A stretch of 64,000 bases of DNA from Candidatus Nomurabacteria bacterium GW2011_GWD2_36_14 (GCA_000991405.1 LBRL01000001.1:222172-286171), one strand, 5' to 3'. Positions 3,262 through 64,000 are shown, counted from the first letter of the stretch. Program-made: numbers and translations. The notes: generated by a model from the sequence alone, not told the origin.

Positions 3262-3960
3262 TTATACCACAAGTGCTATATGTTCTAAAATCATTTTCAC
3301 ACTTGCTCCCGGAACAGAAAGAAAATCTCGACAATTTTTTAATTCATTTAAGATAAATTTAAGATTTTCATTATCTACATCACCTTTCCATTTCTTATAA
3401 ATAATTCTTTCAAGTCCATTGATGAGTGATGTGGCCTCATGTCGCAAGCCTCCACTGTTTTCATTGTCTTTAAACTCTTTAATTATTTCTGCTACTTTTT
3501 CTATGCGTGTACTCTGTGTAGAATTTATAAACAGAAAGGCAATCTTATCATCTTCACTATTATTATCACCTCCATTAATCCTAACTAAGTGCGTCCTTGA
3601 TAATATGGTATCTAGAAGTAGAGAGGCATCAGGTACAATGATGAAAAAATGTGAACTAGGAGTCGGCTCCTCGATTATTTTAAGTAAACTTTGCTCCGCT
3701 TCACGATTGATAAACTTGGCTCCAATTATGCAAATCTTTTTCCTTCCATCGGTGGGCTTGTTCTGATACCATTCCTTTATATCGTGACTATCTTGTATGG
3801 CAAACGAGTCAAAGATAGAAAGCATGACATCCGGACTGTTTCTATTCACTTCTCCTCTTTCTTCTAGAAAGACACGCAACAAATACGCTATGTCATCTAT
3901 GTTACTTTCTATCACATAGCTATGATATAAATCCTTCGGAAATAAATTATTGAAATCCAT
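3262..3960 (-). CDS. holB: DNA polymerase III delta-prime-like clamp-loader subunit
   Basis: KICIIGAKFINREAEQSLLKIIEEPTPSSHFFII...LLDTILSRTH (sensor/SRC-like). Start moved to MDFNN so it does not overlap the upstream gene. Confidence 0.6.
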   Translation of the reverse strand: MDFNNLFPKDLYHSYVIESNIDDIAYLLRVFLEERGEVNRNSPDVMLSIFDSFAIQDSHDIKEWYQNKPTDGRKKICIIGAKFINREAEQSLLKIIEEPTPSSHFFIIVPDASLLLDTILSRTHLVRINGGDNNSEDDKIAFLFINSTQSTRIEKVAEIIKEFKDNENSGGLRHEATSLINGLERIIYKKWKGDVDNENLKFILNELKNCRDFLSVPGASVKMILEHIALVV

Positions 3961-3964
3961 ACAC

Positions 3965-4831
3965 TTATTGTACCTCAAATGGGAAGAATTCCGAAAGCTC
4001 TCCTGAATAATAGAATTCGTATGAAAGCCCACCAAAGGTATAGTCGCGGTTATTGATGGTAATAGTGGAGCCTCCAACTTCGGGATTTTCCTTTGGTATA
4101 GATCTTTTAAAACCTATATTAAATAGTGTAGCCAGCACTTCAGGTCTATCATTTATAGAAAACTCAGAATTTTCCCATTGTTGCATTATTTCTTTTAAGT
4201 ATATTGCTGTGTATAAATACGAATAGTAGTGATTGTGGCTATCTGTAAACCTTGCGAGCCTTTGTGAATCTATATTATTTGTATCACTATAATCTAGTAA
4301 ATTTACATAATCTTTACCGAGATAAAAAGGGCTATTTACATCTTTTAAGTTTGTCTCTATTTCTTTTGCTGTTTCTATTTTTATACCAGAAATACCATAA
4401 GAGAATTGACTATATGTTCCTAATATCTTTAATGGTTCAAAGAATTTCTTGAAAGACTCTCTATTGGAAGTGAAGAACCTAAGTTGTTCAGGCATTATAC
4501 TTGATACAATAAGCCGACTAGGTACATCTGTTATATCACTTACCTTGAGGATAATTTCTTTATCTTTCAAAACACCTTCTTTGAATGTCGCGAATTCATT
4601 TCCTTTCATCCATTCACTATTTATACTACTATAATAATCAGCAACACGTGACTCTTGATTTTTTATTTTATTAAAATAATTATTTCTAGAATCTATACTT
4701 CCCTTCACATCTGTCAGGTGTAAACGCATGGCAACGAAAACACCAGAGAAAATAATTCCCAGCCCTGCAAAGCAACACAGAAGAAAAATCAATATTATTC
4801 GTAATATCTTATTATTCCTTAAAATTTTCAT
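3965..4831 (-). CDS. Membrane-anchored protein (N-terminal TM, large extracytoplasmic domain), immediately downstream of mreB; possible MreC analog by position only
   Basis: 288 aa with an N-terminal hydrophobic helix. No sequence motif recognised. Confidence 0.4.
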   Translation of the reverse strand: MKILRNNKILRIILIFLLCCFAGLGIIFSGVFVAMRLHLTDVKGSIDSRNNYFNKIKNQESRVADYYSSINSEWMKGNEFATFKEGVLKDKEIILKVSDITDVPSRLIVSSIMPEQLRFFTSNRESFKKFFEPLKILGTYSQFSYGISGIKIETAKEIETNLKDVNSPFYLGKDYVNLLDYSDTNNIDSQRLARFTDSHNHYYSYLYTAIYLKEIMQQWENSEFSINDRPEVLATLFNIGFKRSIPKENPEVGGSTITINNRDYTFGGLSYEFYYSGELSEFFPFEVQ

Positions 4832-36842: not shown

Positions 36843-37802
36843 TTACTCCCACTCAAATCCCCTTCCAAAGTGTCCCCAAGTGCAAGTATCGCGAAATTTG
36901 ACTTGGTCTAATTTCAAGTACTCATGTATACCTCTTGGAGTGAGATCGTAGCCAGATATTTCCGACTCTTGCCCATCTATGACAGCTACCGCCATGACGG
37001 GCTCTTCTTGCCCTATAGCATAAGCGAGCTTTGTATAGACTTCTTTAGCATTATTCTTCTTCAGTAGTTCTACTGCTATCTTGCGAGCCATATAAGCTCC
37101 AGAGCGGTCAACCTTCGTATCATCCTTCCCCGAGAAGGAGCCTCCGCCTATCGTTATTTCTGGACCATAATTATCTACTATTAGCTTTCTTCCCGAGAGG
37201 CCTGTGTCTGCGTCAAATCCTCCCAAGGTCCATTCGCCTGCTGGATTTATAAGATATTTATCAGACTCAATAATACTTTTTACAAGTTCTAGTAATTTAT
37301 CGTTTTTTGTATTTTGAAAGCTAGCGACAACTGTAGTGACCACTCCATCCTTCACTGTTACTTGCGTCTTGCCATCATACGGATAAACTTCAAATATCTT
37401 TTGGCACAAATTCCGAGCAAGGTGGTACTCAAGTGGTAGGTATGAGTCCGTCTCACCTGTAGCATATCCTTTCATAATTCCCTGATCGCCAGCTCCACCA
37501 GTGTCTACACCTTGGGCTATTTGCGGACTTTGTAAAACAATATTTGAAATAATTTTAAAATCTTTACCAACTATATCTTTCACAACTTGCTCTATGTCTG
37601 GGTTTGCTTTTGAAGTTACCTCACCATTTATAGTTACAAGTCCATGCCCACCCATTACTTCTATTGCACAACGACTACTCTTGTCGCCATCTAGATATGC
37701 GTCTAATATACTGTCTGCAATAAAATCACATATTTTATCTGGATGCATTGGACTCACAAACTCTGCTGTCTTTATACTCATGCTTGATTCTTGGCCGAAC
37801 AT
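36843..37802 (-). CDS. metK: S-adenosylmethionine synthetase
   Basis: HPDKICDFIADSILDA..., GGGSFSGKDDTKVDRSGAYMAR. Confidence 0.85.
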   Translation of the reverse strand: MFGQESSMSIKTAEFVSPMHPDKICDFIADSILDAYLDGDKSSRCAIEVMGGHGLVTINGEVTSKANPDIEQVVKDIVGKDFKIISNIVLQSPQIAQGVDTGGAGDQGIMKGYATGETDSYLPLEYHLARNLCQKIFEVYPYDGKTQVTVKDGVVTTVVASFQNTKNDKLLELVKSIIESDKYLINPAGEWTLGGFDADTGLSGRKLIVDNYGPEITIGGGSFSGKDDTKVDRSGAYMARKIAVELLKKNNAKEVYTKLAYAIGQEEPVMAVAVIDGQESEISGYDLTPRGIHEYLKLDQVKFRDTCTWGHFGRGFEWE

Positions 37803-37869
37803 TTTTAATAAAATGTTTTAGGCTTAAATTAAAAAATTCTCTATTAAGAGAAAAGATATAGATGACTAG

Positions 37870-37992
37870 TCTTATCTTTCCACCGCGCCTTGCCGTAGCT
37901 TTATGCGTAGGCAGGTTTGTTGGCTGGATTTAGCACCTTGCTTTAGTAGGTTGCTGATGGGTCATTGAGCCAGTTGCTCTCGCCATACTCCT
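37870..37992 (-). promoter_or_regulatory. SAM-I (S-box) riboswitch in the metK leader
   Basis: Reverse complement reads UUAUCAGGAG..GGCGAGAGCAACUGGCUCAAUGACCCAUCAGCAACC...AAGGUGCUAAAUCCAGCC...GGAAAGAUAAGA. P1 pairs UUAUC/GAUAAG. Downstream there is a UUCUCU-UAAU-AGAGAA-U6 terminator-like hairpin. Confidence 0.8.
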
Positions 37993-38108
37993 GATAATTA
38001 ACTATTTAGTTGTAGATAGATTATAGCATAATATTAAAAATTATCTATTTCAGGGTCATTTTACTTTTCTCCCCTTTTTTGTTAATATACGGAAGTGAGT
38101 TTAAACAT

Positions 38109-38183
38109 TCCGTGGTAGCTCAGCGGTAGAGCGATCGCCTGTTAAGCGATTGGTCGTAGGTTCGATCCCTACCCACGGAGCCA
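38109..38183 (+). tRNA. tRNA-Asn (anticodon GUU), CCA encoded
   Basis: Acceptor TCCGTGG/CCACGGA, D-arm GCTCAGCGGTAGAGC, anticodon loop CTGTTAA, T-arm GTAGGTTCGATCCCTAC. Confidence 0.9.
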
Positions 38184-39737
38184 GACAGGACAAAGGGACT
38201 CAAAAGAGTCCTTTTGTCGTTTATTAGTAACTGTTTTATTTAGTTCGAAAATCTTTTGAGCATCTATTTTTTCTTGAACTCTCTTAGATAGGACCTCAAC
38301 AGGTTTCTTTAGTAACGGTATGACTTTTTCGTCTTTTAACATCAAGTTCGAAAAAATATGAGATAAAAGTAATCTTCGTTCTTCAGGACTTCTTTTTTCA
38401 TATATTTCTCTTGCTCTAAAAGCAAGATCTAATATATTTAACCAAATTTCAAAATATTTTGTTTCTACATTTTTTATTCTTGATATTTGTTCTTGTATCT
38501 CTGATTGTTCTTGATTTATTTCTTTTTGTTTTTTCTCCCAACCTTCAGTACTAATTTTTTGATCAAGTCTATCATTGTAGAGTATATCTAGTCGACTCTG
38601 TAGTTGAATATAACGAGCATTAAGAGTGTTTAGAGTGTTCTCTTTGTATTCTATCTCTTGAGCATGATTTGTTTTAATTTTGGCTTTTATAGCCTCAGCT
38701 TCTTTTTCTGTAATATTCTCAAAAAACTTGAAAACTCCGAAAAGCTGTTCCTCAATTTTCTTCTCTGGAGTATATGGTTTTTGAGTGCAGTCTTTATAAT
38801 GGTTACAATGATAATACACAATTCCTTTCTTTATCTCCGCTGTAATAGTACAGTTACATTCTCCACATTTCATCATCTTTCTAAATTGGAAACTATGTTT
38901 GCTGTAGGTAGGAGCTAGATGACCCCTTCTCACACTCTGGGCTTTATCAAATAGTTCTTTTGTGATTATAGGCTCATGCTTTCCTCCTGAGTGAAGTATA
39001 CTATTCCATCTCATAGCTCCGTAATAGAATGGTTCATTTAGAAGGTCTTCTATTCTATTTTTGGCTGGTTTATTACCTGCACGAGTTCTAAATCCTTCAG
39101 TATAAAGTTTTTGCCTCAATGCTTCCATCGAATAGTTACCACTGGCATACATTTCGAAAGCCTTTTTAATAAATGGAGCTACTTCTTCATCAATTACATG
39201 AATTTTGTGCCCTTTATCTCCAATTGTTTTGTACCCAATAGGAGGCTTAGTTGGAAGCCACCCCTGAGCTAATTTTTCCACTTGACCTTTCTTAACTTCC
39301 TCAGAAAGATTAGATATAAACTTTTTAGCTAACACAATTTCAATATCCCAACGAAACTTTTCATCAGATTTGGCATTCTTATGAAGAATAAGATTTTGTT
39401 TTACGAAGTGTATCTTTCTTTCTAAATCTTCATCTATCCAGTCATTAGCAAATACAGCTTCTTTTAAGTTACGAGTTAAACGATCCACCTTTTCAACTAT
39501 TAGATTCTTAATGTCATTTTTCTCTATAAATGACATCATTTCTGCGAATACTTTTCTCTGTTTTGCTCCACTAGCACTCTCGGCCACAGCAAATACTTTT
39601 ACATTTGTAATTCCTTTTCTATTGGCATATTCAGAGAGTAATTTCTCCTGTGAAGGAAGAGAATAACCTGTTTCTTCTTGTTCTTTTGAAGAAACTCGGC
39701 AATATAGCACAGAATTATTTATATTAGAGGTTTTCAT
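38169..39737 (-). CDS. Large serine recombinase (integrase); the last 5 codons overlap the tRNA-Asn 3' end
   Basis: N-terminal catalytic YCRVSSKEQ; C-terminal Cys-rich zinc-ribbon and coiled-coil typical of large serine recombinases. Confidence 0.8.
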   Translation of the reverse strand: MKTSNINNSVLYCRVSSKEQEETGYSLPSQEKLLSEYANRKGITNVKVFAVAESASGAKQRKVFAEMMSFIEKNDIKNLIVEKVDRLTRNLKEAVFANDWIDEDLERKIHFVKQNLILHKNAKSDEKFRWDIEIVLAKKFISNLSEEVKKGQVEKLAQGWLPTKPPIGYKTIGDKGHKIHVIDEEVAPFIKKAFEMYASGNYSMEALRQKLYTEGFRTRAGNKPAKNRIEDLLNEPFYYGAMRWNSILHSGGKHEPIITKELFDKAQSVRRGHLAPTYSKHSFQFRKMMKCGECNCTITAEIKKGIVYYHCNHYKDCTQKPYTPEKKIEEQLFGVFKFFENITEKEAEAIKAKIKTNHAQEIEYKENTLNTLNARYIQLQSRLDILYNDRLDQKISTEGWEKKQKEINQEQSEIQEQISRIKNVETKYFEIWLNILDLAFRAREIYEKRSPEERRLLLSHIFSNLMLKDEKVIPLLKKPVEVLSKRVQEKIDAQKIFELNKTVTNKRQKDSFESLCPVWLRG

Positions 39738-39825: not shown

Positions 39826-40188
39826 TTAGTCATATGGACCCTGTGACTTTAAGTCACTTGGTTTAGTAGCCCAATCCTTTGAATGCGTAAGATAGTACTG
39901 ATTACTGACCCATTGTCCTCTACTTTTTGTTTTGGTTATTTTTATAAATCCATATTTTTCTAAGATAGGGAGATGTCTAATAACTGTTCTTGGGTTTATG
40001 TGCAATTCTTCTGATATTAGTACCTCTGATGGGAATGCAATTCTAGTCTTGCTGTTTGAGTGTCTTTTTAGGCAAAGATAGATAGAAGTCCCTATGGGTC
40101 CTATAAGTTTTGCATATTGGTCTATAAATACATTACCCATCTTAAACCAACCTCCATTTTTTGTTTTTATATATTTCAGCTCATTCAT
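39826..40188 (-). CDS. Winged-HTH protein resembling the RepA_N / replisome-organizer N-terminal domain
   Basis: FIDQYAKLIGPIGTSIYLCLKRHSN...ISEELHINPRTVIRHLPILEKYGFIKI. Confidence 0.5.
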   Translation of the reverse strand: MNELKYIKTKNGGWFKMGNVFIDQYAKLIGPIGTSIYLCLKRHSNSKTRIAFPSEVLISEELHINPRTVIRHLPILEKYGFIKITKTKSRGQWVSNQYYLTHSKDWATKPSDLKSQGPYD

Positions 40189-40195
40189 AAATTTA

Positions 40196-40468
40196 TTAAA
40201 TATTAGAATCTAGAGTTGATTCCCTAGGAGCTGACACTAGGGAATCAACTTTAAGTTCCAATTTTTCTTTTTGTTTATCTTCATAATCAAACTTTGCAAG
40301 CAAGTCAAAAAAAGATGAAAGTTCATTCAACTCTTGAATATTTAATTCTTCTTCTGTTGAGCTATCTAATCTCATTGTTAAAATACTGACGACATATTTT
40401 TTCAATCGTCTTAGATAAGGTAAAATTCTTTTTCTGAGATAACTCAGAAAGTTTCTCGTGTAGATCAA
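40196..40468 (-). CDS. Hypothetical protein (90 aa)
   Basis: ORF only. Confidence 0.35.
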   Translation of the reverse strand: MIYTRNFLSYLRKRILPYLRRLKKYVVSILTMRLDSSTEEELNIQELNELSSFFDLLAKFDYEDKQKEKLELKVDSLVSAPRESTLDSNI

Positions 40469-40647: not shown

Positions 40648-41313
40648 CTACTTAATAATTGAGATGGAAAAAATGTATTTATTAAAACAATAGCCAGAAC
40701 CAGCAGGAATAATTAAATTATTTTCTTGCTCAAATTTATCTTCAAAAGATTTGTTTATATTTTTAATAGCAGTAGAAACACTTCGTTCTTCTGAATATCC
40801 AGCTTCTTCTGTTAGTTTAGACATCGTTTTTGGTGATCCTTTTGACAACAATTTTAATATTTCTAGTTTTTTATCACTAACTTTTATTGAATTTTTTGAG
40901 TCTTCCTTAAGAAAAATCAGACCTCGTAAGTCTATACAAACTTTTTGTTTATTATCTTTTTTTGTATACTTTTGTAAAGTAATTGGATTATCTTCTATTT
41001 GATTTTTAAGTAATTCAATTTTTTCTTTTGCTATGCTGGGGGCAATTCTTCTAATTAGTAAATCATCACCTATATTCTCTTCAGAAAAATATTGCTGTTT
41101 ATCTATTAGGATCAGTTTTTCAAGTACTTTCGATAAATTATTTAAGTCTTGCATAGTAACACCATAAGCATTCAATGAATAAAGGGGTATTCTAGTATTA
41201 GAAGAAAAACCAGGAAAACCTTTTTGGTAATTTTCAATAAGGTTTACAACTTGTAACATTTTATCACAGTCTTCTTTTGTTAGTTTAGGTGTATTGATAA
41301 TATATTCTTCCAT
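40648..41313 (-). CDS. DNA-binding protein with C-terminal OmpR/PhoB-type winged helix, no receiver domain
   Basis: VSDKKLEILKLLSKGSPKTMSKLTEEAGYSEERSVSTAIKNINKSF. Confidence 0.45.
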   Translation of the reverse strand: MEEYIINTPKLTKEDCDKMLQVVNLIENYQKGFPGFSSNTRIPLYSLNAYGVTMQDLNNLSKVLEKLILIDKQQYFSEENIGDDLLIRRIAPSIAKEKIELLKNQIEDNPITLQKYTKKDNKQKVCIDLRGLIFLKEDSKNSIKVSDKKLEILKLLSKGSPKTMSKLTEEAGYSEERSVSTAIKNINKSFEDKFEQENNLIIPAGSGYCFNKYIFSISIIK

Positions 41314-41861
41314 ATTAAAGATAATCTCATTTTTTTAGGTTTTTGTCGACAATTTTTTATTTAATTGAGTCAAAGAAATGCGACCTTTTGCGACCCATTA
41401 TATTTATCGATATTTTATAAGACTCTTTAATCTAATAATTTCTTATTGGAATTAAATATACTTCCACAAAATATCTTGTAAATAAATGACATTCTGATCA
41501 TACCCATACTAAAATACCGAGTTTTGCCTAGTCCTAAAATGCCACCTTTTGCCACCCACTCTTCCCGCCTTTTCCCACCCCTTTTCACCTCTAATACATC
41601 AGACTTTTTCAGACTTTTTATAAAAGAATCTATTTATTGTATTTGTCGACAAAAAGAGCTATTATAAAAATACAACGCCTAAACCAGAAATGGCATGGCT
41701 ACATAGGAAACCCACGCAAATAGTAATGGCCTCACAGTCATCACCATTTGCGTGGGTCCATATTCGAAAGAGTATGGGGTGTTCTCGAAAGAGGATATCA
41801 GATGGTCTGTGGGGCCTTTACTGTCTTCATAACCATATTATAAATTAAAAACCCACGCAAA
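41314..41861. promoter_or_regulatory. AT-rich noncoding region with palindromes and direct repeats (candidate operator/iteron-origin region of the element)
   Basis: TTGTCGACAA palindrome twice (about 41341 and 41643). AAACCCACGCAAA twice, forming a 12-bp inverted repeat at 41710-41762. A CCACC(T)TTT pyrimidine-repeat tract. Confidence 0.5.
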
Positions 41862-42848
41862 ATGAAAAAAATACAAATAATTTGTTTAATTGTTTTTTGT
41901 TTTCTTTCTTTTAGTATCGCCCGTGCAGAAACTTTGATTATAAAATCAGTGGATAAAAGAATAGAAGATATTGAAAAATCTCGAGAGAAACTTCAAAAAG
42001 ATATTGAAAATAATTATAAACAAGTTCAAGCTGAATTAAAAAGTTTAAGTGCAAGAATAGACACTAATATAAAAAGTGAATTTTATTGTGTATTACCAAC
42101 TCAAACTTGCACGGAATCTATCTATCAAGGTATTAGAGGAACTGCCATATCGAGTGGTCTTATTCCAGATGCTGGTCAACTTGCTCAATGCAGAGCTAAG
42201 ATTGATGAATATAATACAAAATTACAGGAATATAATAAATGTTTTCAAGATTGGCAAAATAAAAAGATTGGAGATTCGGCTCAAAAAGAATACGATTATC
42301 AATTGCAAGTATATGAATTAAAATCACAATTAGCCTGTATGGATAAAGAAGGACACTATTCGTCTTTCAATAAAATAACTAAACAATGTGAGTGTGTAGA
42401 AGGTTCAACATTCGTCAACGGAAAATGCATAAATCGTATAGATAATCTACTTATGTGCGTAAAAACTTTTGGTCCATTATCTCATTATGATTACGACAAA
42501 GCTGGTTGTGTATGTGATGAGGGTAGTAAATTAGATCTCGAAAAAGATCTATGTGTTGCTGAAACAGAAAAAGTAGTACCTCCCCCAGTAAAAGAAAAAT
42601 CTCCCTATAAGAATAAATTTCAGGAAATTTTACAACAAAAGGAAACTGAACAACCCTTAAAACCCTCTCAAGGGCTTAAAGAAAGTCCCAAGAGCATAAT
42701 TACTGTTGTAGAGGAGAAAGTACCTTCACAGGCTGAAATTACCCCAAATACTTCGCATGATATACAACCTCCAGCTATTACAGGTCCATCAAATGTAACA
42801 TTCTGGCAAAAAATTAAAAAAAACTTCTTGAAAATTAAGTTTTGGTAA
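41862..42848 (+). CDS. Secreted Cys-rich protein with N-terminal coiled-coil (signal peptide)
   Basis: Signal peptide MKKIQIICLIVFCFLSFSIARA and multiple C..C pairs. Confidence 0.5.
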   Translation: MKKIQIICLIVFCFLSFSIARAETLIIKSVDKRIEDIEKSREKLQKDIENNYKQVQAELKSLSARIDTNIKSEFYCVLPTQTCTESIYQGIRGTAISSGLIPDAGQLAQCRAKIDEYNTKLQEYNKCFQDWQNKKIGDSAQKEYDYQLQVYELKSQLACMDKEGHYSSFNKITKQCECVEGSTFVNGKCINRIDNLLMCVKTFGPLSHYDYDKAGCVCDEGSKLDLEKDLCVAETEKVVPPPVKEKSPYKNKFQEILQQKETEQPLKPSQGLKESPKSIITVVEEKVPSQAEITPNTSHDIQPPAITGPSNVTFWQKIKKNFLKIKFW

Positions 42849-42858
42849 AAATACTTTT

Positions 42859-43122
42859 ATGAAAATTAACCTATTATTTTGGATATTTATACTAATAGCT
42901 TTCATTGGAACATTTTTATATTATCTAGGAGAAACAAGGAAGAATAATATCGGTGAGGTCATTAAGTTTTCTGGAGGAATTATTACATTTGGTATTCTAA
43001 TATCCTCATTCTTTTTATTAGAATGGAAGGCGTCATTCTTGCTTATTATTGGCGAATTCACAATAATCAGTTTTTTATCAACTTTACTTGTTGAATCTAT
43101 GACAAAGAGACGTATAAATTAA
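42859..43122 (+). CDS. Small membrane protein (3 TM)
   Basis: ORF with hydrophobic helices. Confidence 0.4.
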   Translation: MKINLLFWIFILIAFIGTFLYYLGETRKNNIGEVIKFSGGIITFGILISSFFLLEWKASFLLIIGEFTIISFLSTLLVESMTKRRIN

Positions 43123-43127
43123 ATATT

Positions 43128-43541
43128 ATGGAAAAATTAAAGGGGCTGATAATTAGTGTATTACAAGAAGAACAAACTAATCATATGAATAAACAAAAAA
43201 GAATCAAGGAGTTGGTATTGGCTATCGTTTTAACAATTTTACCAATTTTTATATTTATAATAATGCCTGCATTAGAAGATAAATACTTTGACTTGTTTTC
43301 TGGGCGTTTGATGTACCTAAGTCAAGATTATTATTTTTCTTTTTCCCCACTTTTTATCTTTGATTTGCCTTACTTTTTTACCCCAATAATATCAGCTTTG
43401 GCAGTATGGTTTTGTCTTAAAATTAGAAAAAGTATAGAAAATAGAAGTTCATTTTTTAACTACCTTAATCTCGTCTTAATTGTTTTGAATAGTGTTTTTT
43501 CCTTATATTCCTTATGGTTTTTATTGTTATTTTATAAATAA
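43128..43541 (+). CDS. Membrane protein (4 TM)
   Basis: ORF with hydrophobic helices. Confidence 0.4.
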   Translation: MEKLKGLIISVLQEEQTNHMNKQKRIKELVLAIVLTILPIFIFIIMPALEDKYFDLFSGRLMYLSQDYYFSFSPLFIFDLPYFFTPIISALAVWFCLKIRKSIENRSSFFNYLNLVLIVLNSVFSLYSLWFLLLFYK

Positions 43542-43597
43542 AAATCTAAAATCGTAGTATTATTTGATAATTTATTATTTTCGTATACAATATACAT

Positions 43598-44572
43598 ATG
43601 GCAAAAGAAGAAAAGCAGATTATCGAGAATAATTCAAAAAATGGTGTAAATGAAAAGATACCAAATAATGAAGATTCTGCTCAAAATAAGAAAGTCGAAG
43701 AAGAAATATCTCCTCTTAAAAAATTATTAAAGAAGAGTGATGTTTTGCTTATGTTATACCCAAAAGACATAAATGGAAATTTTTCAGCCAGCATTGATCC
43801 TGAAGATGAAATTTCTATTTATAAACTTTTGAAGGAAAAGAAGGAGAAGAAAAAAGAACTTTTAATTTTATTAGATACAAGTGGTGGTAATGTATATTCG
43901 GCGGTTAAAATAATGGATACATTAAGAACCCAATATAATCAAATAAATATTGCAATACCGCAGGAAGCTAAAAGTTCTGGAACTATGATGTGTTGTGGTG
44001 CTAATAATTTAATAATGAGTTCTATCTCTGAACTTGGACCATTAGATAAGCCAATGATTCATCCTAATGATGAGACAGCAAGAATCTCTGCTTTAGATAT
44101 TATTAAATCTATCGATGGCATGTTGGATACTGCACAACAAAGAGAAAAAGATTTTGCCAAAGAGGTAAATAATGATTTTGGAATACCTATTAAACAAAGT
44201 TTGCAATTAGCAAGTGAATCAATCTCTAAACTAATATCACCTATGTTGTGTAGAGAAGATGTAAAAATCTATAATCAAGCCCAAAGATTACTTGTTATAG
44301 CCCAGAAATACGCCACTGAACTATTAGACGCACATATGTTAAAATATATTGATCGTAAAAAACTTAAAGAGAGAATTATTGATATGACTACTAGGCAGTT
44401 GATATGGGCATATCCTGACCATAGTTTTGCTATTAGACGAGATGAATTGAGAGAATGGTTTTTTATTGTAAAAAATTCTGAAGATGTTGATTATTGGGAC
44501 GAACTTTGGGATAAATTTTATCAAAATATAGGTTATAAAAATAGTAAATTGATTAAATTTTTAGATAATTAA
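43598..44572 (+). CDS. ClpP/crotonase-fold serine peptidase, SDH (serine dehydrogenase proteinase)/S49-like
   Basis: ILLDTSGGNVYSAVKIMDTLR...IPQEAKSSGTMMCCGANNLIMSSISELGPLDKP matches the lhTpGG...A.SaGT.ia.aAdei.M....lGpiDP pattern. Confidence 0.55.
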   Translation: MAKEEKQIIENNSKNGVNEKIPNNEDSAQNKKVEEEISPLKKLLKKSDVLLMLYPKDINGNFSASIDPEDEISIYKLLKEKKEKKKELLILLDTSGGNVYSAVKIMDTLRTQYNQINIAIPQEAKSSGTMMCCGANNLIMSSISELGPLDKPMIHPNDETARISALDIIKSIDGMLDTAQQREKDFAKEVNNDFGIPIKQSLQLASESISKLISPMLCREDVKIYNQAQRLLVIAQKYATELLDAHMLKYIDRKKLKERIIDMTTRQLIWAYPDHSFAIRRDELREWFFIVKNSEDVDYWDELWDKFYQNIGYKNSKLIKFLDN

Positions 44573-44583
44573 GATATAATTTT

Positions 44584-44790
44584 ATGAACATTGCAATATT
44601 AACAAAATTTAATATGGATGAAAAAGATACACTACCCTTAGATAGCGGTAATAACGATGAATTTCCTATGAGTGTTAGCGAAAAATTAGTAAGAAATGAA
44701 GTGAGAAAATTGACTGAAAATTCTAAAGAAATAAAAAAACTAAAGGAACAAATTGAGAAAAAGAATAACAAAAATAAGAGTGATTTATAA
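44584..44790 (+). CDS. Small hypothetical protein
   Basis: ORF only. Confidence 0.3.
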   Translation: MNIAILTKFNMDEKDTLPLDSGNNDEFPMSVSEKLVRNEVRKLTENSKEIKKLKEQIEKKNNKNKSDL

Positions 44791-44847
44791 TATTCTAATT
44801 TAATAGGTCGATAAGTTTAATATATTTAAGTAATTTTAATAAAAAAT

Positions 44848-45045
44848 ATGTCAGGTAAAAATAGGATAATTATAAAAAAATCAACAAATAAACAAAAATA
44901 TGTTGTATTAAAATCAGCTAATAATAAGACTATAGCAAATACGGAAACATATAAAAGTAATCAGAGTGTAGATAAAGCAGTTAAAGCTCTAAAAAAGATT
45001 GTTAAAAATGCTATCATTGTAGATCAGACTAAAAAAGAGAAGTAG
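44848..45045 (+). CDS. YegP/DUF1508-family protein
   Basis: IIIKKSTNKQKYVVLKSANNKTIANTETYKSNQSVDKAVKALKK. Confidence 0.6.
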   Translation: MSGKNRIIIKKSTNKQKYVVLKSANNKTIANTETYKSNQSVDKAVKALKKIVKNAIIVDQTKKEK

Positions 45046-45149
45046 AATTATTAAACTAATAGTGATCTTATTTCAGCTAATGCGATATTTGGGAAAGGAT
45101 ATTCTTTGGCCCAATCAATAGTTATAAAATCGTCCGTTAGGGCGAGCCA

Positions 45150-45554
45150 ATGAAAGAGGCAGTTATAAGTTTGATAAGTGTCATAGTGGGAGCCATTATA
45201 GGTCTAATGGGTACTTTTTTATCTTCATACTTTCAGAATAAGATTTGGAAGAAAGAAAAACAGATTGAACATTTAAAAGCTAAAAAAGAAAATCTAGAAA
45301 ATAAATACGAGAAATATATCAAAGAGTTATATCTTTCTATGGAAAAGAATGGCAATTTTGATGCTGAACTGTTTCTAGAGGGTCTATACTCTTTCCCGAA
45401 AAATGTCAAAGACTCAATTTATAAACTAACTAAATTAAAAACAGGTAAAGAAAATCTGGAGGAACTTAAGCAAGCTAATTGGTGTATAATCGAAGAAATG
45501 AAAAAATCATTAGTTGAAATTGATATCGAAATAAAAAAGAAAATTGATGATTAA
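45150..45554 (+). CDS. Membrane-anchored coiled-coil protein
   Basis: N-terminal TM helix followed by a coiled-coil. Confidence 0.4.
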   Translation: MKEAVISLISVIVGAIIGLMGTFLSSYFQNKIWKKEKQIEHLKAKKENLENKYEKYIKELYLSMEKNGNFDAELFLEGLYSFPKNVKDSIYKLTKLKTGKENLEELKQANWCIIEEMKKSLVEIDIEIKKKIDD

Positions 45555-45677
45555 CTTGTGCAAATCATAATCCGAGAATCTTCGCATGTTAGGAGTAGCA
45601 AGGATGGTCCTTGCTACTCTGTTACTATTCTTCTTTATACCTAAATGATTTTTTATATTATGTTATAATATACTCAT

Positions 45678-45875
45678 ATGAAATATTTTAAAAAAGCACT
45701 GTTTATTTGTTTTATAGTCTCACTTATTTTCTCTTTGTTTTGGACAATCGGAAAGTTTTTTAATTCTGATATGCCTATGCTTGATAGACAAACTTATTCT
45801 ATAATGTCTGGATTAAAATACCTTACAGCCATTGCTTTATATATAGCTTGGAGAGTTACACCAGACCATAAGTAA
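45678..45875 (+). CDS. Small 2-TM membrane protein
   Basis: ORF with hydrophobic helices. Confidence 0.35.
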   Translation: MKYFKKALFICFIVSLIFSLFWTIGKFFNSDMPMLDRQTYSIMSGLKYLTAIALYIAWRVTPDHK

Positions 45876-45980
45876 GTATTAGTTAGTTGTTGTGAATTAT
45901 CAAGGATGGTCTTTGATAGTTTCAGCAAGCAAATGAATTTTAAAAAATAAAACTCGACAAAGTCTGAAACAATGCCGAGT

Positions 45981-46367
45981 TTATTTTGCAAAAATTTTTT
46001 TTGTAATTAGATAACTCACGATCGACAATATGACAGTGATAAATATTTGTGCAATTAAATATTTTAAGTTTATATATTCAACTAGTAAATATAAAAATAT
46101 ACTATTTGCACAAAGCAGTACTCCTGACATAATAAAATACCGGAGAATCTGTTTGGGAATTTCTTTTTTGTCTTTATTATCAAAAGTCCAATACTTCTGA
46201 AACAAAAAACTGGATGTATAAGATAAGATAGAACCAATTGCCGCAGATATCGGATACCAAATTTCAACGAACTCAGTTAAACAATAAAGCGTTAGATAAT
46301 ATAATCCTACACATATAATTCCACTTATACCAAATTTTGCAATCTTTGGGATTTTTTTAGTTTTCAA
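45981..46367 (-). CDS. GtrA-family membrane protein
   Basis: 4 TM helices. FQKYWTF resembles the GtrA FxxNRxWTF motif. Confidence 0.55.
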   Translation of the reverse strand: MKTKKIPKIAKFGISGIICVGLYYLTLYCLTEFVEIWYPISAAIGSILSYTSSFLFQKYWTFDNKDKKEIPKQILRYFIMSGVLLCANSIFLYLLVEYINLKYLIAQIFITVILSIVSYLITKKIFAK

Positions 46368-46525
46368 TATAGCCTCCTTTTTTCTTCATACTAATTGATA
46401 ATTCCCCAAAAAGCAATTTTTAATCGCGTTTCTCTTTTAAAAAGTTCCAACTTCATTCTAAATTTGAAACCTCAATTTTAACCCTATAATTCAAAACCCC
46501 TACCCTTTTATCAAATTCTAACCTA

Positions 46526-46936
46526 TTGACTTTACAAGTTGAAAAATGTAATGTGAAAGAAAAATTGTCTAACTCTAAAATAAAATATGTTATGAAAAGT
46601 ATTCTTGTAATTACCATTCTAGACAGAAATGAAGATCTAATTGAGCAATTCATGGCCGTAGGCATAGAAACACACATCTCAGTATTTTTCTATAGACCGG
46701 AGAATGAAAGAAATCTATTAGATCGTATTAAAAAAAGTCGTCCAGCTATGATAATAATGGACGGCAGGATACATCCATTAACACTGGAAAATATCTACGA
46801 CAGTATTTTCAATACTCTTGGTGTATATGACATGGATTCTAATATCTATGCCATTAAAAAAGAAGTTCATCTACCAGGAGTAATTAATACAAAAATAGAA
46901 AATTTTGTAAAAATATGGGAAGAGTCGCGAAAGTGA
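46526..46936 (+). CDS. Hypothetical protein
   Basis: ORF, followed by a hairpin that shares GAGTAGCAAGGA with the hairpin at 45590. Confidence 0.35.
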   Translation: MTLQVEKCNVKEKLSNSKIKYVMKSILVITILDRNEDLIEQFMAVGIETHISVFFYRPENERNLLDRIKKSRPAMIIMDGRIHPLTLENIYDSIFNTLGVYDMDSNIYAIKKEVHLPGVINTKIENFVKIWEESRK

Positions 46937-47087
46937 CTCTTTTTGTTTTTATCTTACCTAAAGAGTAGCAAGGACGATTCTCGTTACTCTTTCTTTCCAC
47001 CCTAGTATCTATATTTTTCAAAAGGTATACACTTAAGACAAATCTACACAAATTCTAAATTTAATTTAACCTACTAAATTTATTATT

Positions 47088-47321
47088 ATGAAAAATGTAA
47101 CAATTTGTCTCTCTTGTGCAGATGTGTGCAAGAATGGAGTTTTTGTTAAAAGCGAAAAAGAAATAGCTAAATTATGGTTGCTGACATTTCGTAAACCTAA
47201 AGCAGATATAGATATAGTTATCTATGTTTGCCCAGAATGTTACAGATCCTTTCCAAGGGAATATTTGGAAGCGATAAAAATGAAATATTATGAGAAACAG
47301 CTAGAACAAACTTCAGGATGA
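47088..47321 (+). CDS. Small zinc-ribbon protein
   Basis: CLSC...CPEC Cys pairs. Confidence 0.4.
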   Translation: MKNVTICLSCADVCKNGVFVKSEKEIAKLWLLTFRKPKADIDIVIYVCPECYRSFPREYLEAIKMKYYEKQLEQTSG

Positions 47322-47801
47322 AGTTTGTTCTTTCATTTAATTTAACCAATTTACTTGGGTAAATTTAAAGGGCAACTTTTGTTGCCCTAGGGGTTTATAC
47401 TTTTTTTAATAATTTTAATGAAATTTTTTCAATTAATTCAATTCTTGGACTAGGATCAAGTTGTGAGACATTAAAGCCTTCGGGTAAATCACCAGAATAA
47501 ATTTCCTGATAAAATTTAAGAATTTTTTGAGAAACAATAGGATACATTCTAATAATTTCATCGGAGAATTTTTCAATTCCTAAATTGGTGACAATAGGTT
47601 TTCTGTCATTTTCTGTATAAGCAAAATATGTCTTTTCCCCATTTAAACCCTTACTAAAAATAATGATTCCTTCACTAGTTTCAGTTGTTCCTATAAATTT
47701 AGTTTTTTAAAAAGTGAATATTTGGTTTAATTATAATCTTTTATTTTATAACTAGCAATACAAGAGTTTACGACTCCTCTTTTGATTGCTATACTAATAC
47801 T

Positions 47802-48011
47802 ATGCAAAAAACAGCTACAAAAATCTTCATTTATTCATCAATCGTTTTCGGAATTATCGGAATACTGGTTGTTGTGACTGGTTCTGGACCAGATGCTCCA
47901 GATTCAAATATTAGTAAAATATTGATTAGACTTCTATTTGCAACGGTATTTGTCATCTTGCCTTCATTCGCATTAAGTATTGCTAGCAAATACTTGAACG
48001 ATAAATCTTAA
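47802..48011 (+). CDS. Small 2-TM membrane protein
   Basis: ORF only. Confidence 0.35.
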   Translation: MQKTATKIFIYSSIVFGIIGILVVVTGSGPDAPDSNISKILIRLLFATVFVILPSFALSIASKYLNDKS

Positions 48012-61004: not shown

Positions 61005-61098
61005 ATTTCGAGAGAAGCTATTAAAAAAATCTAGAACTCTAATATATAGATAGATATGAAAAACACCATGCTTTGGACAAGGTGTTTTTCATATATTT

Positions 61099-61412
61099 GG
61101 TTTGTATCTATAAGCCGGGTTCTGTTCCCTATTGCTAGAGTAATAGATATTTATCTAGGATGTAAATTACTCCACACCTCAAGCGATTCAAATTCTGGCA
61201 TAAAGCCAGAAAGTACGATCTTGCACACGCGTAAGTATTTTGCCGTTTCACCCGAACACTAATTTTCATTAATGTTCGATTCGTCTCTGTTCGCAACTCT
61301 ACCCTTACGGGCGACGGGCGTTACCCGCTACGTTTAATCAAGCAAAAGCTTGAATATGTGCCCGGACTTTCCTCACCCTAATAAATTAAGGCGCATCTAT
61401 CCAATACAAACC
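61099..61412 (-). ncRNA. rnpB: RNase P RNA (compact, about 314 nt)
   Basis: P4 strands GAGGAAAGUCCGGGCAC (reverse complement of 61358-61378) and ACAGAACCCGGCUUA (reverse complement of 61111-61125). P1 pairs GGUUUGUAU/AUACAAACC. A TTGTCA-17-TACAAT promoter lies upstream on the minus strand. Confidence 0.8.
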
Positions 61413-63299: not shown

Positions 63300-64000
63300 C
63301 ACTTCATAAATGAAGGTAAGAGATCGATTTCAAATTGAATTATTCCACGAACAGCTTCCGCTACCCGTGCCTTGTTACGACTTATTCCCTGTCACCGAGC
63401 TTACTGTAGGCCCTCCTTCTGGAGAGATTTCGAGTATTCCCGGCTCCCTTGAATTGACGGGCGGTGAGTACAAGACTTGAGAACGTATTCACCGCGGTAT
63501 GTCTGACCCGCGATTACTAGTAATTCCAACTTCATGGGGTCGAGTTGCAGCCCCCAATCCGAACTGGCGCAATTTTTATAGGATTCGCTCAGGGTTACCC
63601 CGTCGCTGCCCGTTGTAATTGCGATTGTATTATGTGTGTAGCCCAAGGTATCAAGGGACATGCTGACCTGGCGTCATCCTCCCCTTCCTCCCCGACCGAA
63701 ACGTACAAATAGTTATAAAGTTTTATAAAGTGTAAAGTTATAAAGTGAATGCAAAATGCATTTTACTTTATGAACTTTATGAACTTTTAACTTTCAACTT
63801 TTATCCGCTTGGGTCGGGGCAGTCTCGTGTGACACTTATAACACACGACGAGGGTTGCGTTCGTTACCCCACTTAAGGGAACAATTCAAACCACGAACTG
63901 ACGACGGCCATGCATCACCTGTCAACTAGTCTTGCGAGGGCCCTGGTTTCTCAGGGCTTTCACGTTGATTTCTAACCTTGGTAAGGTTCTTCGTTTATCG
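63300..64000 (-). rRNA. rrs: 16S rRNA gene, 3' two-fifths (continues past window end); 3' end approximate
   Basis: Reverse complement contains AAGUCGUAACAAGG, UGUACACACCGCCCGUCA and GGAGGAAGG...GAUGACGUCA (universal 1390-1500 and 1175-1200 regions). An AT-rich insertion of about 110 nt lies at 63715-63830. Confidence 0.9.

Follow-up and report, generated by a model that had tools for sequence, protein, structure and literature searches.

A mosaic gene row with a backbone trio, a peptidase pair and orphan genes on a predicted integrative island of Candidatus Nomurabacteria

A stretch of 64,000 nt from Candidatus Nomurabacteria bacterium GW2011_GWD2_36_14 (GCA_000991405.1 LBRL01000001.1:222172-286171), referred to here as the window, carries a row of seven plus-strand genes, g1 to g7, at positions 41862-45554. 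The row is a mosaic. Genes g1-g3 recur with an island backbone in other genomes without g4-g7, the peptidase gene g4 and its small neighbor g5 are found as a pair in 14 other loci, and g6 and g7 have no relatives in the loci compared. The mosaic structure is held with high confidence, and a defence or genetic-conflict function of g4-g5 with moderate confidence. The whole picture, i.e., a backbone trio, a portable defence cassette and orphan passengers together on a mobile island, is considered probable. The row itself is probably the plus-strand arm of a predicted integrative island of ~9.9 kb (about 38.18-48.05 kb) in this bacterium of the candidate phyla radiation (CPR).

Mosaic composition of the gene row

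All seven open reading frames (ORFs) were confirmed, with intergenic gaps of 10, 5, 56, 11, 57 and 104 nt, in order. Coordinates are collected in Table 1, where related loci carry handles of the form L146. An earlier reading of this DNA, made from the sequence alone (the sequence-only reading), had described seven tightly spaced plus-strand genes, lying as co-directional cargo of an island between a regulatory region at 41.3-41.8 kb and a hairpin terminator near 45590. This layout is real: the gaps are 5-104 nt, a terminator-like hairpin follows g7, the regulatory region contains an RNA of the LOOT family (Rfam RF03000), and the island context is seen in the low G+C and in a serine recombinase gene at a tRNA-Asn gene. 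The descriptions given earlier for the g1, g2, g3, g6 and g7 proteins were also reproduced by hydropathy, Pfam matches and Cys count.

In a locus from Candidatus Pacebacteria (L146) the genes of the island are found in the window order, with the recombinase 66% identical to that of the window, p90 58% and p221 32%, followed by LOOT, g1 (56%), g2 (70%) and g3 (57%). Elsewhere the trio is retained to different degrees: g1, g2 and g3 are present in L148 and L155, g1 and g3 in L154, and g1 alone in L149 and L156. The g2 protein is 68-74% identical in L146, L148 and L155, and that of g3 is 54-60% identical in L146, L148, L154 and L155. In L155 the gene caller took the wrong strand for g2. Synteny with the sister islands stops right after g3, and different genes follow there in each island, encoding ATPases of PARIS/Septu-like, AbiL-like, OLD or DUF87 type, a caspase-like protease or a PIN protein (Table 1). 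Thus g1-g3 are part of the island backbone, since they recur with the recombinase, p90, p221 and LOOT, and without g4-g7, while the cargo after g3 varies. The position after g3 is a slot that exchanges unrelated genes typical of defence or conflict systems. Scans of IMG/VR viral sequences with g1 and with g2 revealed no relatives, and a metagenome scan with g2 for further sister islands returned only an already known locus.

A hydrophobic, signal-like segment marks the N terminus of the g1 protein, which also has 14 Cys and a coiled coil or long predicted helix. Ten g1 homologues found in the protein search (37-57% identity) share 8 invariant Cys, which sit in two small beta-hairpin modules, and a conserved C-terminal tail. 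This tail, TFWQK.KN..LKIKFW, is strikingly conserved and comes after a variable Pro/Thr/Glu-rich linker; it may be a surface-anchoring signal in CPR bacteria. An AlphaFold2 model of g1 has a mean confidence (pLDDT) of 68.6, and a fold search with it gave no significant match, the best being the EGF-like Pfs25 at E 0.06.

The search with g4 returned ~100 proteins in CPR metagenomes, most of them 50-74% identical, plus 58 genome loci. In 14 other loci g4 and g5 are adjacent (40-72% identity). The g5 homologue lies directly 3′ of the peptidase gene in 14/14 of these close loci and is the only gene besides g4 that they have in common with the window; nothing like g1, g2, g3, g6 or g7 was detected in them. 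Within the pair the genes overlap by up to 11 nt or lie up to 15 nt apart, the start codon being uncertain in one locus. The g5 proteins display the core motif P[VI]S.SEKLVR.E[IV].KL.ENS.EI[KR]KLKEQ, and a hidden Markov model of g5, run against ~2 Mb translated in six frames, gave matches solely at this position behind the peptidase gene. The hosts of the pair belong to several CPR classes, and it is also present in bins labelled WOR-1 and Eubacteriales. An antisense ORF of 72 aa (44553-44771, minus strand), which is longer than g5, is spurious, since conservation follows the g5 frame; it might mislead a gene caller as to the strand.

Closely spaced restriction-modification genes of the same orientation directly precede the cassette in 4/13 close loci. 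In L150 a Fic gene directly follows it, and in L140 the cassette is inside another island, one that has a Rep protein, a serine recombinase gene overlapping a tRNA-Gln gene, and LOOT. In L005, L009 and L142 the cassette is preceded, at a distance of 40-180 nt, by tRNA genes of the same orientation; this could reflect an insertion hotspot or co-transcription.

The g6 protein matches PF07411 (DUF1508) with 33.8 bits, above the cut-off of 22, which bears out its earlier assignment to YegP/DUF1508; it also matches phrog_1422. No relative of g6 was found in any related locus compared. The g7 protein has a single N-terminal hydrophobic span followed by a coiled coil. It is without relatives in the loci compared, and a homology search at E<=1e-3 returned nothing. 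Genes g6 and g7 and the cargo downstream of them are probably lineage-specific small genes that were separately acquired.

The hairpin at the end of g7 is formed by a 28-nt palindrome, GAGTAGCAAGGATGGTCCTTGCTACTCT (45593-45620). A second copy with 5 mismatches is present at 46963-46990, after a 136-aa ORF, and a weaker copy at 45895-45922. The palindrome was found nowhere else in the window nor in ~2.4 Mb of related loci, and it is absent from the sister islands. It was considered as a boundary site of the cassette and rejected, the copies being confined to this island, and is treated as a local terminator repeat. The terminator scan gave no further plus-strand terminator-like site between g1 and g7.

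The g4 peptidase and its distant relatives

A ClpP/crotonase fold of the g4 protein is supported by family and fold matches, and the closest solved structures include NfeD 1510-N and SppA. The scores with the family models are 27.6 bits for PF01972 (cut-off 31.3) and 44.3 bits for NF047768 (cut-off 250), both below the curated cut-offs. However, the E. coli proteins that are named ‘SDH family Clp fold serine proteinase’ in RefSeq reach 36.7 bits on NF047768, and g4 is therefore equally near to this model. Alignment of the g4 profile with an E. coli prophage SDH-family protein (hhalign) gave a probability of 99.96% and an E value of 8.6e-39 over 247 columns, including the C-terminal YPxH. The earlier description as an SDH-like ClpP-fold peptidase is borne out by the fold and by full-length homology, but not by the curated cut-offs.

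Three residues of g4 are invariant, S126, D150 and H275. They occur in the order Ser-Asp-His, the order given for PF01972 in its Pfam description. S126, invariant in 21 sequences, aligns with the catalytic Ser of NfeD 1510-N (the SAGT serine) and with that of ClpP. These residues take the place of the S49-like Ser/Lys dyad that the sequence-only reading had assumed: K151, which adjoins D150, gives way to I, T or M among distant homologues, and K125, adjoining S126, is nearly invariant only. In the hydropathy scan g4 shows neither a signal peptide nor a hydrophobic span. On the basis of its residues the peptidase looks catalytically competent.

The similarity of g4 to NfeD 1510-N, SppA and ClpP consists of the ClpP/crotonase fold and a nucleophile Ser at the equivalent position. 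Unlike NfeD and SppA, g4 has no membrane anchor, no stomatin partner and no conserved Lys for a Ser/Lys dyad, and unlike ClpP it has no His 25 residues past the Ser. It differs from all three in having an extra C-terminal helical domain, which is absent from the matched ClpP, NfeD and SppA chains and carries an invariant YP[DS]H motif. A search of the literature on PF01972, the SDH proteinase and S49/SppA in defence yielded nothing useful.

The g4 profile matched 1643 clusters (at 50% identity) at E<=1e-30, and 5383 at 1e-10. Distant relatives, at 23-33% identity, include accessory genes of temperate phages. In a Klebsiella phage the peptidase gene is beside XRE/ImmA genes and has a 71-aa ORF upstream; in a P2-like Burkholderia phage it is beside the integrase gene, and in an inovirus replicon it is between zot and the integrase gene. 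A g4 homologue is present in 49/5426 E. coli genomes. Two lambdoid E. coli prophages (L157 and L159) carry the peptidase gene between cI and the N/pL genes, without an annotated partner; the post-cI position is that of rexAB in phage lambda. By hand count, ~34/80 IMG/VR matches are no further than about 2.7 kb from the end of their contig. The genes that neighbor the distant homologues are weakly informative, a mix of housekeeping, insertion sequence (IS), integrase and restriction-modification genes.

In at least 16 distant loci a different family of small ORFs is found directly 3′ of the peptidase gene. These encode 45-85 aa and display a motif like DFYKREILETR..VS. Their hosts are Nitrospira, Bacteroidota, Ignavibacteria, Acidobacteriota and other CPR genomes, and a profile of the family found new members solely at the position downstream of the peptidase.

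The LOOT RNA and the island around the gene row

LOOT is an orphan structured RNA family known from metagenomes. The window copy scores above the gathering score, spans the full covariance model (positions 1-121) and has a fold z-score of −6.3. A LOOT RNA is found 39-62 nt upstream of the g1 homologue in 7/7 loci examined; it is also present in the L140 island, there upstream of a 106-aa gene. A hairpin and then a T-run follow on the 3′ side of LOOT in 8/8 aligned copies. Rfam types the family as a small RNA (sRNA) gene; unlike this typing, the LOOT of the islands holds a fixed place on a mobile element, upstream of g1. The accessible literature on the RNA gives no function or context for LOOT.

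Important is the complementarity between LOOT and the start region of g1. The 11 nt directly before the g1 ATG, ACCCACGCAAA, repeat the 5′ arm of the long LOOT helix (41710-41720) and are exactly complementary to its 3′ arm (41747-41757). In 5/8 loci the segment before the ATG could form a mismatch-free duplex of 9-11 bp with the 3′ arm. The pre-ATG versions differ between loci (ACCCACGCAAA, ACCTACGCGAA, CCCGCTAAA, ACCCACGCGA), and compensatory changes retain the pairing. In a shuffle control, 0/1000 shuffles reached the observed duplex length in 4 of the 5 pairing loci. The fold of lowest energy contains LOOT and leaves the start region of g1 unpaired. A cis effect of LOOT on translation of g1-g3 is suggested by its fixed place upstream of g1 and by the pairing with the g1 start, which covaries between loci. 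The two alternative pairings suggest a switch on g1 translation.

G+C is 26-33% across 38-48 kb, versus mostly 33-46% in the rest of the window. At the left junction the recombinase stop codon reaches 15 nt into the 3′ end of the tRNA-Asn gene. Overlap of the recombinase 3′ end with a tRNA 3′ end, by 12-67 nt, is seen in three islands, those of the window (tRNA-Asn), L140 (tRNA-Gln) and L154 (one other tRNA). Thus the recombinase ORF reads through the island junction into the tRNA gene. The p221 protein carries weak winged-helix signals, and an intergenic stretch of 548 nt precedes the plus-strand arm. The right end of the island is put near 48.05 kb because the homologue of p69 is the last gene of the L154 island, directly before the host uvrC; in the window G+C climbs past 48 kb. 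No displaced copy of the tRNA-Asn 3′ end was found as a mark of the right border, which is not unexpected with a serine recombinase. No recognisable phage or satellite genes were found on the island.

Several other features were noted. A GtrA gene, like the one inside the low-G+C region of the window, which may be either cargo or host, is also found near the L140 island. In L146 a group I intron (3948-4257, 85.9 bits) is 34 nt off the recombinase end and may lie in the target gene of the island. Immediately left of the island in the window is a SAM riboswitch (37869-38000, minus strand) upstream of the S-adenosylmethionine synthetase gene (36843-37802), an ordinary host feature. Ordinary host features are found toward the right end of the window as well, namely RNase P RNA (61095-61412, minus strand) and the 3′ part of a 16S rRNA gene (63333-64000, minus strand).

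Table 1. Features of the window and of related loci
Feature	Position	Strand	Details
tRNA-Asn (GTT)	38109-38183	+	Left island junction; ARAGORN; Rfam 71.5 bits
Large serine recombinase	38169-39737	-	Island integrase, 522 aa; Resolvase, Recombinase and Zn_ribbon_recom matches
HTH_36 / DnaD_N-like DNA-binding protein	39826-40188	-	120 aa; Pfam HTH_36 29.9 bits; PHROG replication-initiator and DnaD-like matches
p90	40196-40468	-	Small backbone protein; same position in L146, 58% identical; 36% in L155
p221	40648-41313	-	Backbone protein; homologues 32-35% (L146, L155; L146 = 32%); weak HTH_5 and Trans_reg_C matches
LOOT RNA (RF03000)	41676-41799	+	60.8 bits vs gathering score 46.4, E 1e-9
Terminator-like hairpin and T-rich tail after LOOT	41804-41830	+	Scan match at 41804-41816
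Pre-ATG segment ACCCACGCAAA	41851-41861	+	Directly before g1 ATG
g1	41862-42848	+	328 aa; secreted coiled-coil protein with Cys-rich domain; island backbone
g2	42859-43122	+	87 aa; small membrane protein, ~3 hydrophobic spans (hydropathy scan); island backbone
g3	43128-43541	+	137 aa; small membrane protein, about 3 hydrophobic spans (hydropathy scan); final backbone gene before cargo slot
g4	43598-44572	+	324 aa; cytoplasmic SDH-type ClpP-fold serine peptidase, C-terminal helical domain
g5	44584-44790	+	68 aa; charged helical partner of g4
g6	44848-45045	+	65 aa; single-domain YegP/DUF1508 protein, basic
g7	45150-45554	+	134 aa; coiled-coil orphan, N-terminally anchored
Terminator-like palindromic hairpin after g7	45592-45620	+	13-bp stem (terminator scan)
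Remaining low-G+C cargo	45678-48011		g8 (65 aa, membrane), GtrA, p136, p77, p69; ORFs, Pfam matches
GtrA-family membrane protein gene	45981-46367	-	Inside low-G+C cargo region
p69	47802-48011		69-aa membrane protein; 59% identical homologue in L154
LOOT copy, L146	7815-7938		
LOOT copy, L148	7813-7939		
LOOT copy, L149	7842-7961		
LOOT copy, L154	8819-8945		
LOOT copy, L155	8036-8160		
LOOT copy, L156	1581-1706		
LOOT copy, L140	9283-9401		
tRNA-Gln, L140	12654-12726		Overlaps recombinase gene
Recombinase, L140	11197-12720		
tRNA, L154	5980-6051		Overlaps recombinase gene
Recombinase, L154	6040-7710		
Slot cargo, L146			AriAB/PtuA-like ATPase and 342-aa protein, where the window has g4-g5
Slot cargo, L148			AriA/AbiL-like ATPase
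Slot cargo, L149			Old-family protein, 214 bits, after g1
Slot cargo, L154			DUF87 ATPase
Slot cargo, L155			Peptidase_C14 protein (caspase-like protease)
Slot cargo, L156			PIN_12 protein, after g1
Upstream of cassette, L006			N6_N4 methylase and MvaI/BcnI endonuclease
Upstream of cassette, L010			N6_N4 methylase
Upstream of cassette, L002			C5 methylase
Upstream of cassette, L013			HsdS
tRNA upstream of cassette, L005	7619-7801		
tRNA upstream of cassette, L009	4138-4210		
tRNA upstream of cassette, L142	7878-7949		
Lambdoid E. coli prophage, L157	8163-9993		Peptidase gene between cI and N/pL genes
Lambdoid E. coli prophage, L159	7127-9002		Peptidase gene between cI and N/pL genes
Second small-ORF family, L037	8773-8967		
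Second small-ORF family, L041	8755-8952		
Second small-ORF family, other loci			L029, L052, L036, L040, L026, L021, L018, L019, L023, L044, L050, L093, L048

Proposed function, alternatives and known systems

In the account proposed here, g1-g3 would be a cell-surface module of the element, combining a secreted coiled-coil protein rich in disulfides with a pair of small membrane proteins. Its translation would be governed by LOOT, through alternative pairing with the start region of g1. The g4-g5 pair would be a phage or mobile-element exclusion module in the slot after g3. In an exclusion or abortive response, the cytoplasmic Ser-Asp-His peptidase g4 would act as effector, and g5 and its kin of 60-77 aa would regulate it, possibly as inhibitor, adaptor or trigger sensor, so that infection or loss of the partner would unleash proteolysis. 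Genes g6 and g7 would be passengers, transcribed as far as the hairpin at 45592. The defence or conflict reading of g4-g5 is drawn from the restriction-modification, Fic and island neighbors of the pair, from its accessory positions in phages, and from the defence-typical cargo in the slots of the sister islands. Of the surface or defence module proposed earlier, the surface- or membrane-like character of g1-g3 and the peptidase as a plausible defence-type effector are retained, but not their union in one module.

A number of results weigh against this account. The scan shows no terminator between g3 and g4, and a promoter-like site before g4 (43564-43591) is no better than chance; thus the seven genes may still share one transcript. 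A search of the cassette flanks in 13 loci revealed no shared non-coding ends, repeats or att-like sites that could account for its movement. The g5 protein was considered as a homologue of the distant small ORFs, with which it shares a VR.EI-like motif, and this was rejected as unsupported (hhalign probability 0.4%). Many enterobacterial homologues of g4 have no downstream partner, and among 150 genes neighboring distant homologues a minority are mobile-element or defence genes, the remainder being housekeeping genes. No model of PADLOC-DB 2.0.0 matches g4 or g5; g2, g3 and g6 are also without a match there, and g1 and g7 gave weak coiled-coil noise only. Finally, the right end of the island is approximate only (~48.05 kb).

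The main rival, which is unlikely but should be considered, is that g4-g5 form a toxin-antitoxin-like addiction module that stabilises the carrier DNA, with a protease toxin and a labile g5 antitoxin. The pair is compact and translationally coupled, patchy in distribution and horizontally spread, has no other conserved neighbor, and in both the window and L140 forms part of an integrative island. However, many copies are found amid housekeeping genes with no mobile element nearby, and the solitary peptidase genes of E. coli prophages would not be tolerable for a strongly toxic protease. It should be noted that the border to defence is blurred, many defence modules being toxin-antitoxin-like.

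Less probable again is a role of g4 as a regulatory protease of the element, which would cleave a repressor in the manner of ImmA or LexA and, with g5 as a small regulator, control excision or induction. Homologues do adjoin repressor genes (XRE/ImmA in the Klebsiella phage, cI in the lambdoid prophages), and the island encodes DNA-binding proteins. However, CPR cassettes are found with no repressor or element nearby, after secA, tRNA genes or restriction-modification genes. The slot after cI in lambdoid phages, moreover, is a classic site of exclusion genes expressed in the lysogen, and this too speaks against repressor cleavage.

The view of the sequence-only reading, that all seven genes are one functional system for surface or host interaction or for abortive infection, in which the peptidase acts with the secreted and membrane proteins, is very improbable. 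It would account for the co-directional arrangement, the short gaps and the single terminator-like hairpin at 45592 with none inside the row, and the nearest solved structures do include the membrane-associated ClpP-fold proteases NfeD 1510-N and SppA. But the genes are independently distributed in other genomes where the whole set is concerned. The combination occurs in no other locus: g1-g3 recur without g4-g7 and with six other kinds of cargo, g4-g5 are found in the 14 loci without the others and without any membrane partner, and g6 has no relatives in related loci, while g7 has no detectable ones at all. In addition, neither a signal peptide nor a membrane span is seen in g4 itself. That island genes are co-directional and tightly spaced is not evidence for a single system.

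That g4 is a remnant prohead protease, g5 a scaffold fragment and the island a decayed prophage can be dismissed on scores and gene context, since the weak head-maturation protease matches (NF045542 32.8 bits against a cut-off of 120, phrog_2976 E 9e-5) fall far short of their cut-offs, PHROG families without known function match best (E 5.5e-29), the CPR loci with gene tables and Pfam hits that were examined show no adjoining portal, capsid or terminase gene, and the phage copies are in early or accessory regions, outside the head module.

A broader reading of the locus joins g4-g5, as the CPR branch of a huge family of immune modules, with LOOT, as the cis leader of the surface trio of the island; both parts holding together is possible, and is offered tentatively. 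In the first part, the family could be one of ~1,600 clusters at 50% identity, spread over many phyla and temperate phages and nearly unstudied, in which a protease is governed by a fast-evolving micro-protein that is swapped in sequence and even in gene order. In the second part, LOOT could be riboswitch-like or protein-binding, and could switch translation of the trio in an undescribed family of CPR islands. To our knowledge very little is known of the mobile elements and immunity of CPR bacteria (Patescibacteria). The locus defines a small family of islands, with a serine recombinase, LOOT, a surface trio and one interchangeable defence slot. It provides the LOOT RNA, to which no function has been assigned, with a genomic context and a testable mechanism, the covarying pairing with the g1 start. 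The cassette of protease and micro-protein provides a link between CPR genomes and accessory genes that occur in lambdoid, P2-like and filamentous phages. Should the family defend by regulated proteolysis, it would represent a branch of bacterial immunity that is abundant but unexplored in its mechanism.

Among known systems, g4-g5 can be set beside FS_HP_SDH_sah, which is reportedly a two-gene anti-phage system from phage-inducible chromosomal islands (PICI), said to have been described by Fillol-Salom et al. in Cell in 2022. The gene name SDH_sah refers to the Pfam family PF01972. The two-gene system is listed by DefenseFinder, and its name appears in PMC13532340. Compared by name and layout only, both consist of a small hypothetical protein and a ClpP-fold protein of the SDH_sah family, carried as mobile-element cargo. 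Given this listing, the earlier statement that the genes correspond to no described system holds in part only. The g4-g5 pair differs in its host, a CPR bacterium, and in being carried by a serine-recombinase island instead of a PICI. In addition, the small gene follows the peptidase gene in g4-g5, whereas a 71-aa gene precedes it in the Klebsiella phage. Homologues of g5 were detected within the CPR clade only, and g4 is just 24-28% identical to the enterobacterial peptidases. The pair resembles FS_HP_SDH_sah and is filed as a putative distant variant, alike in protease family and in two-gene logic.

The island as a whole is comparable to the known hotspots of defence cargo, i.e., the post-cI rexAB slot and the accessory regions of P2/P4 and PICI, which likewise have a conserved backbone and one slot of interchangeable defence genes. 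Unlike in those hotspots, the carrier here is a CPR island of ~10 kb with a large serine recombinase, LOOT and a surface trio.

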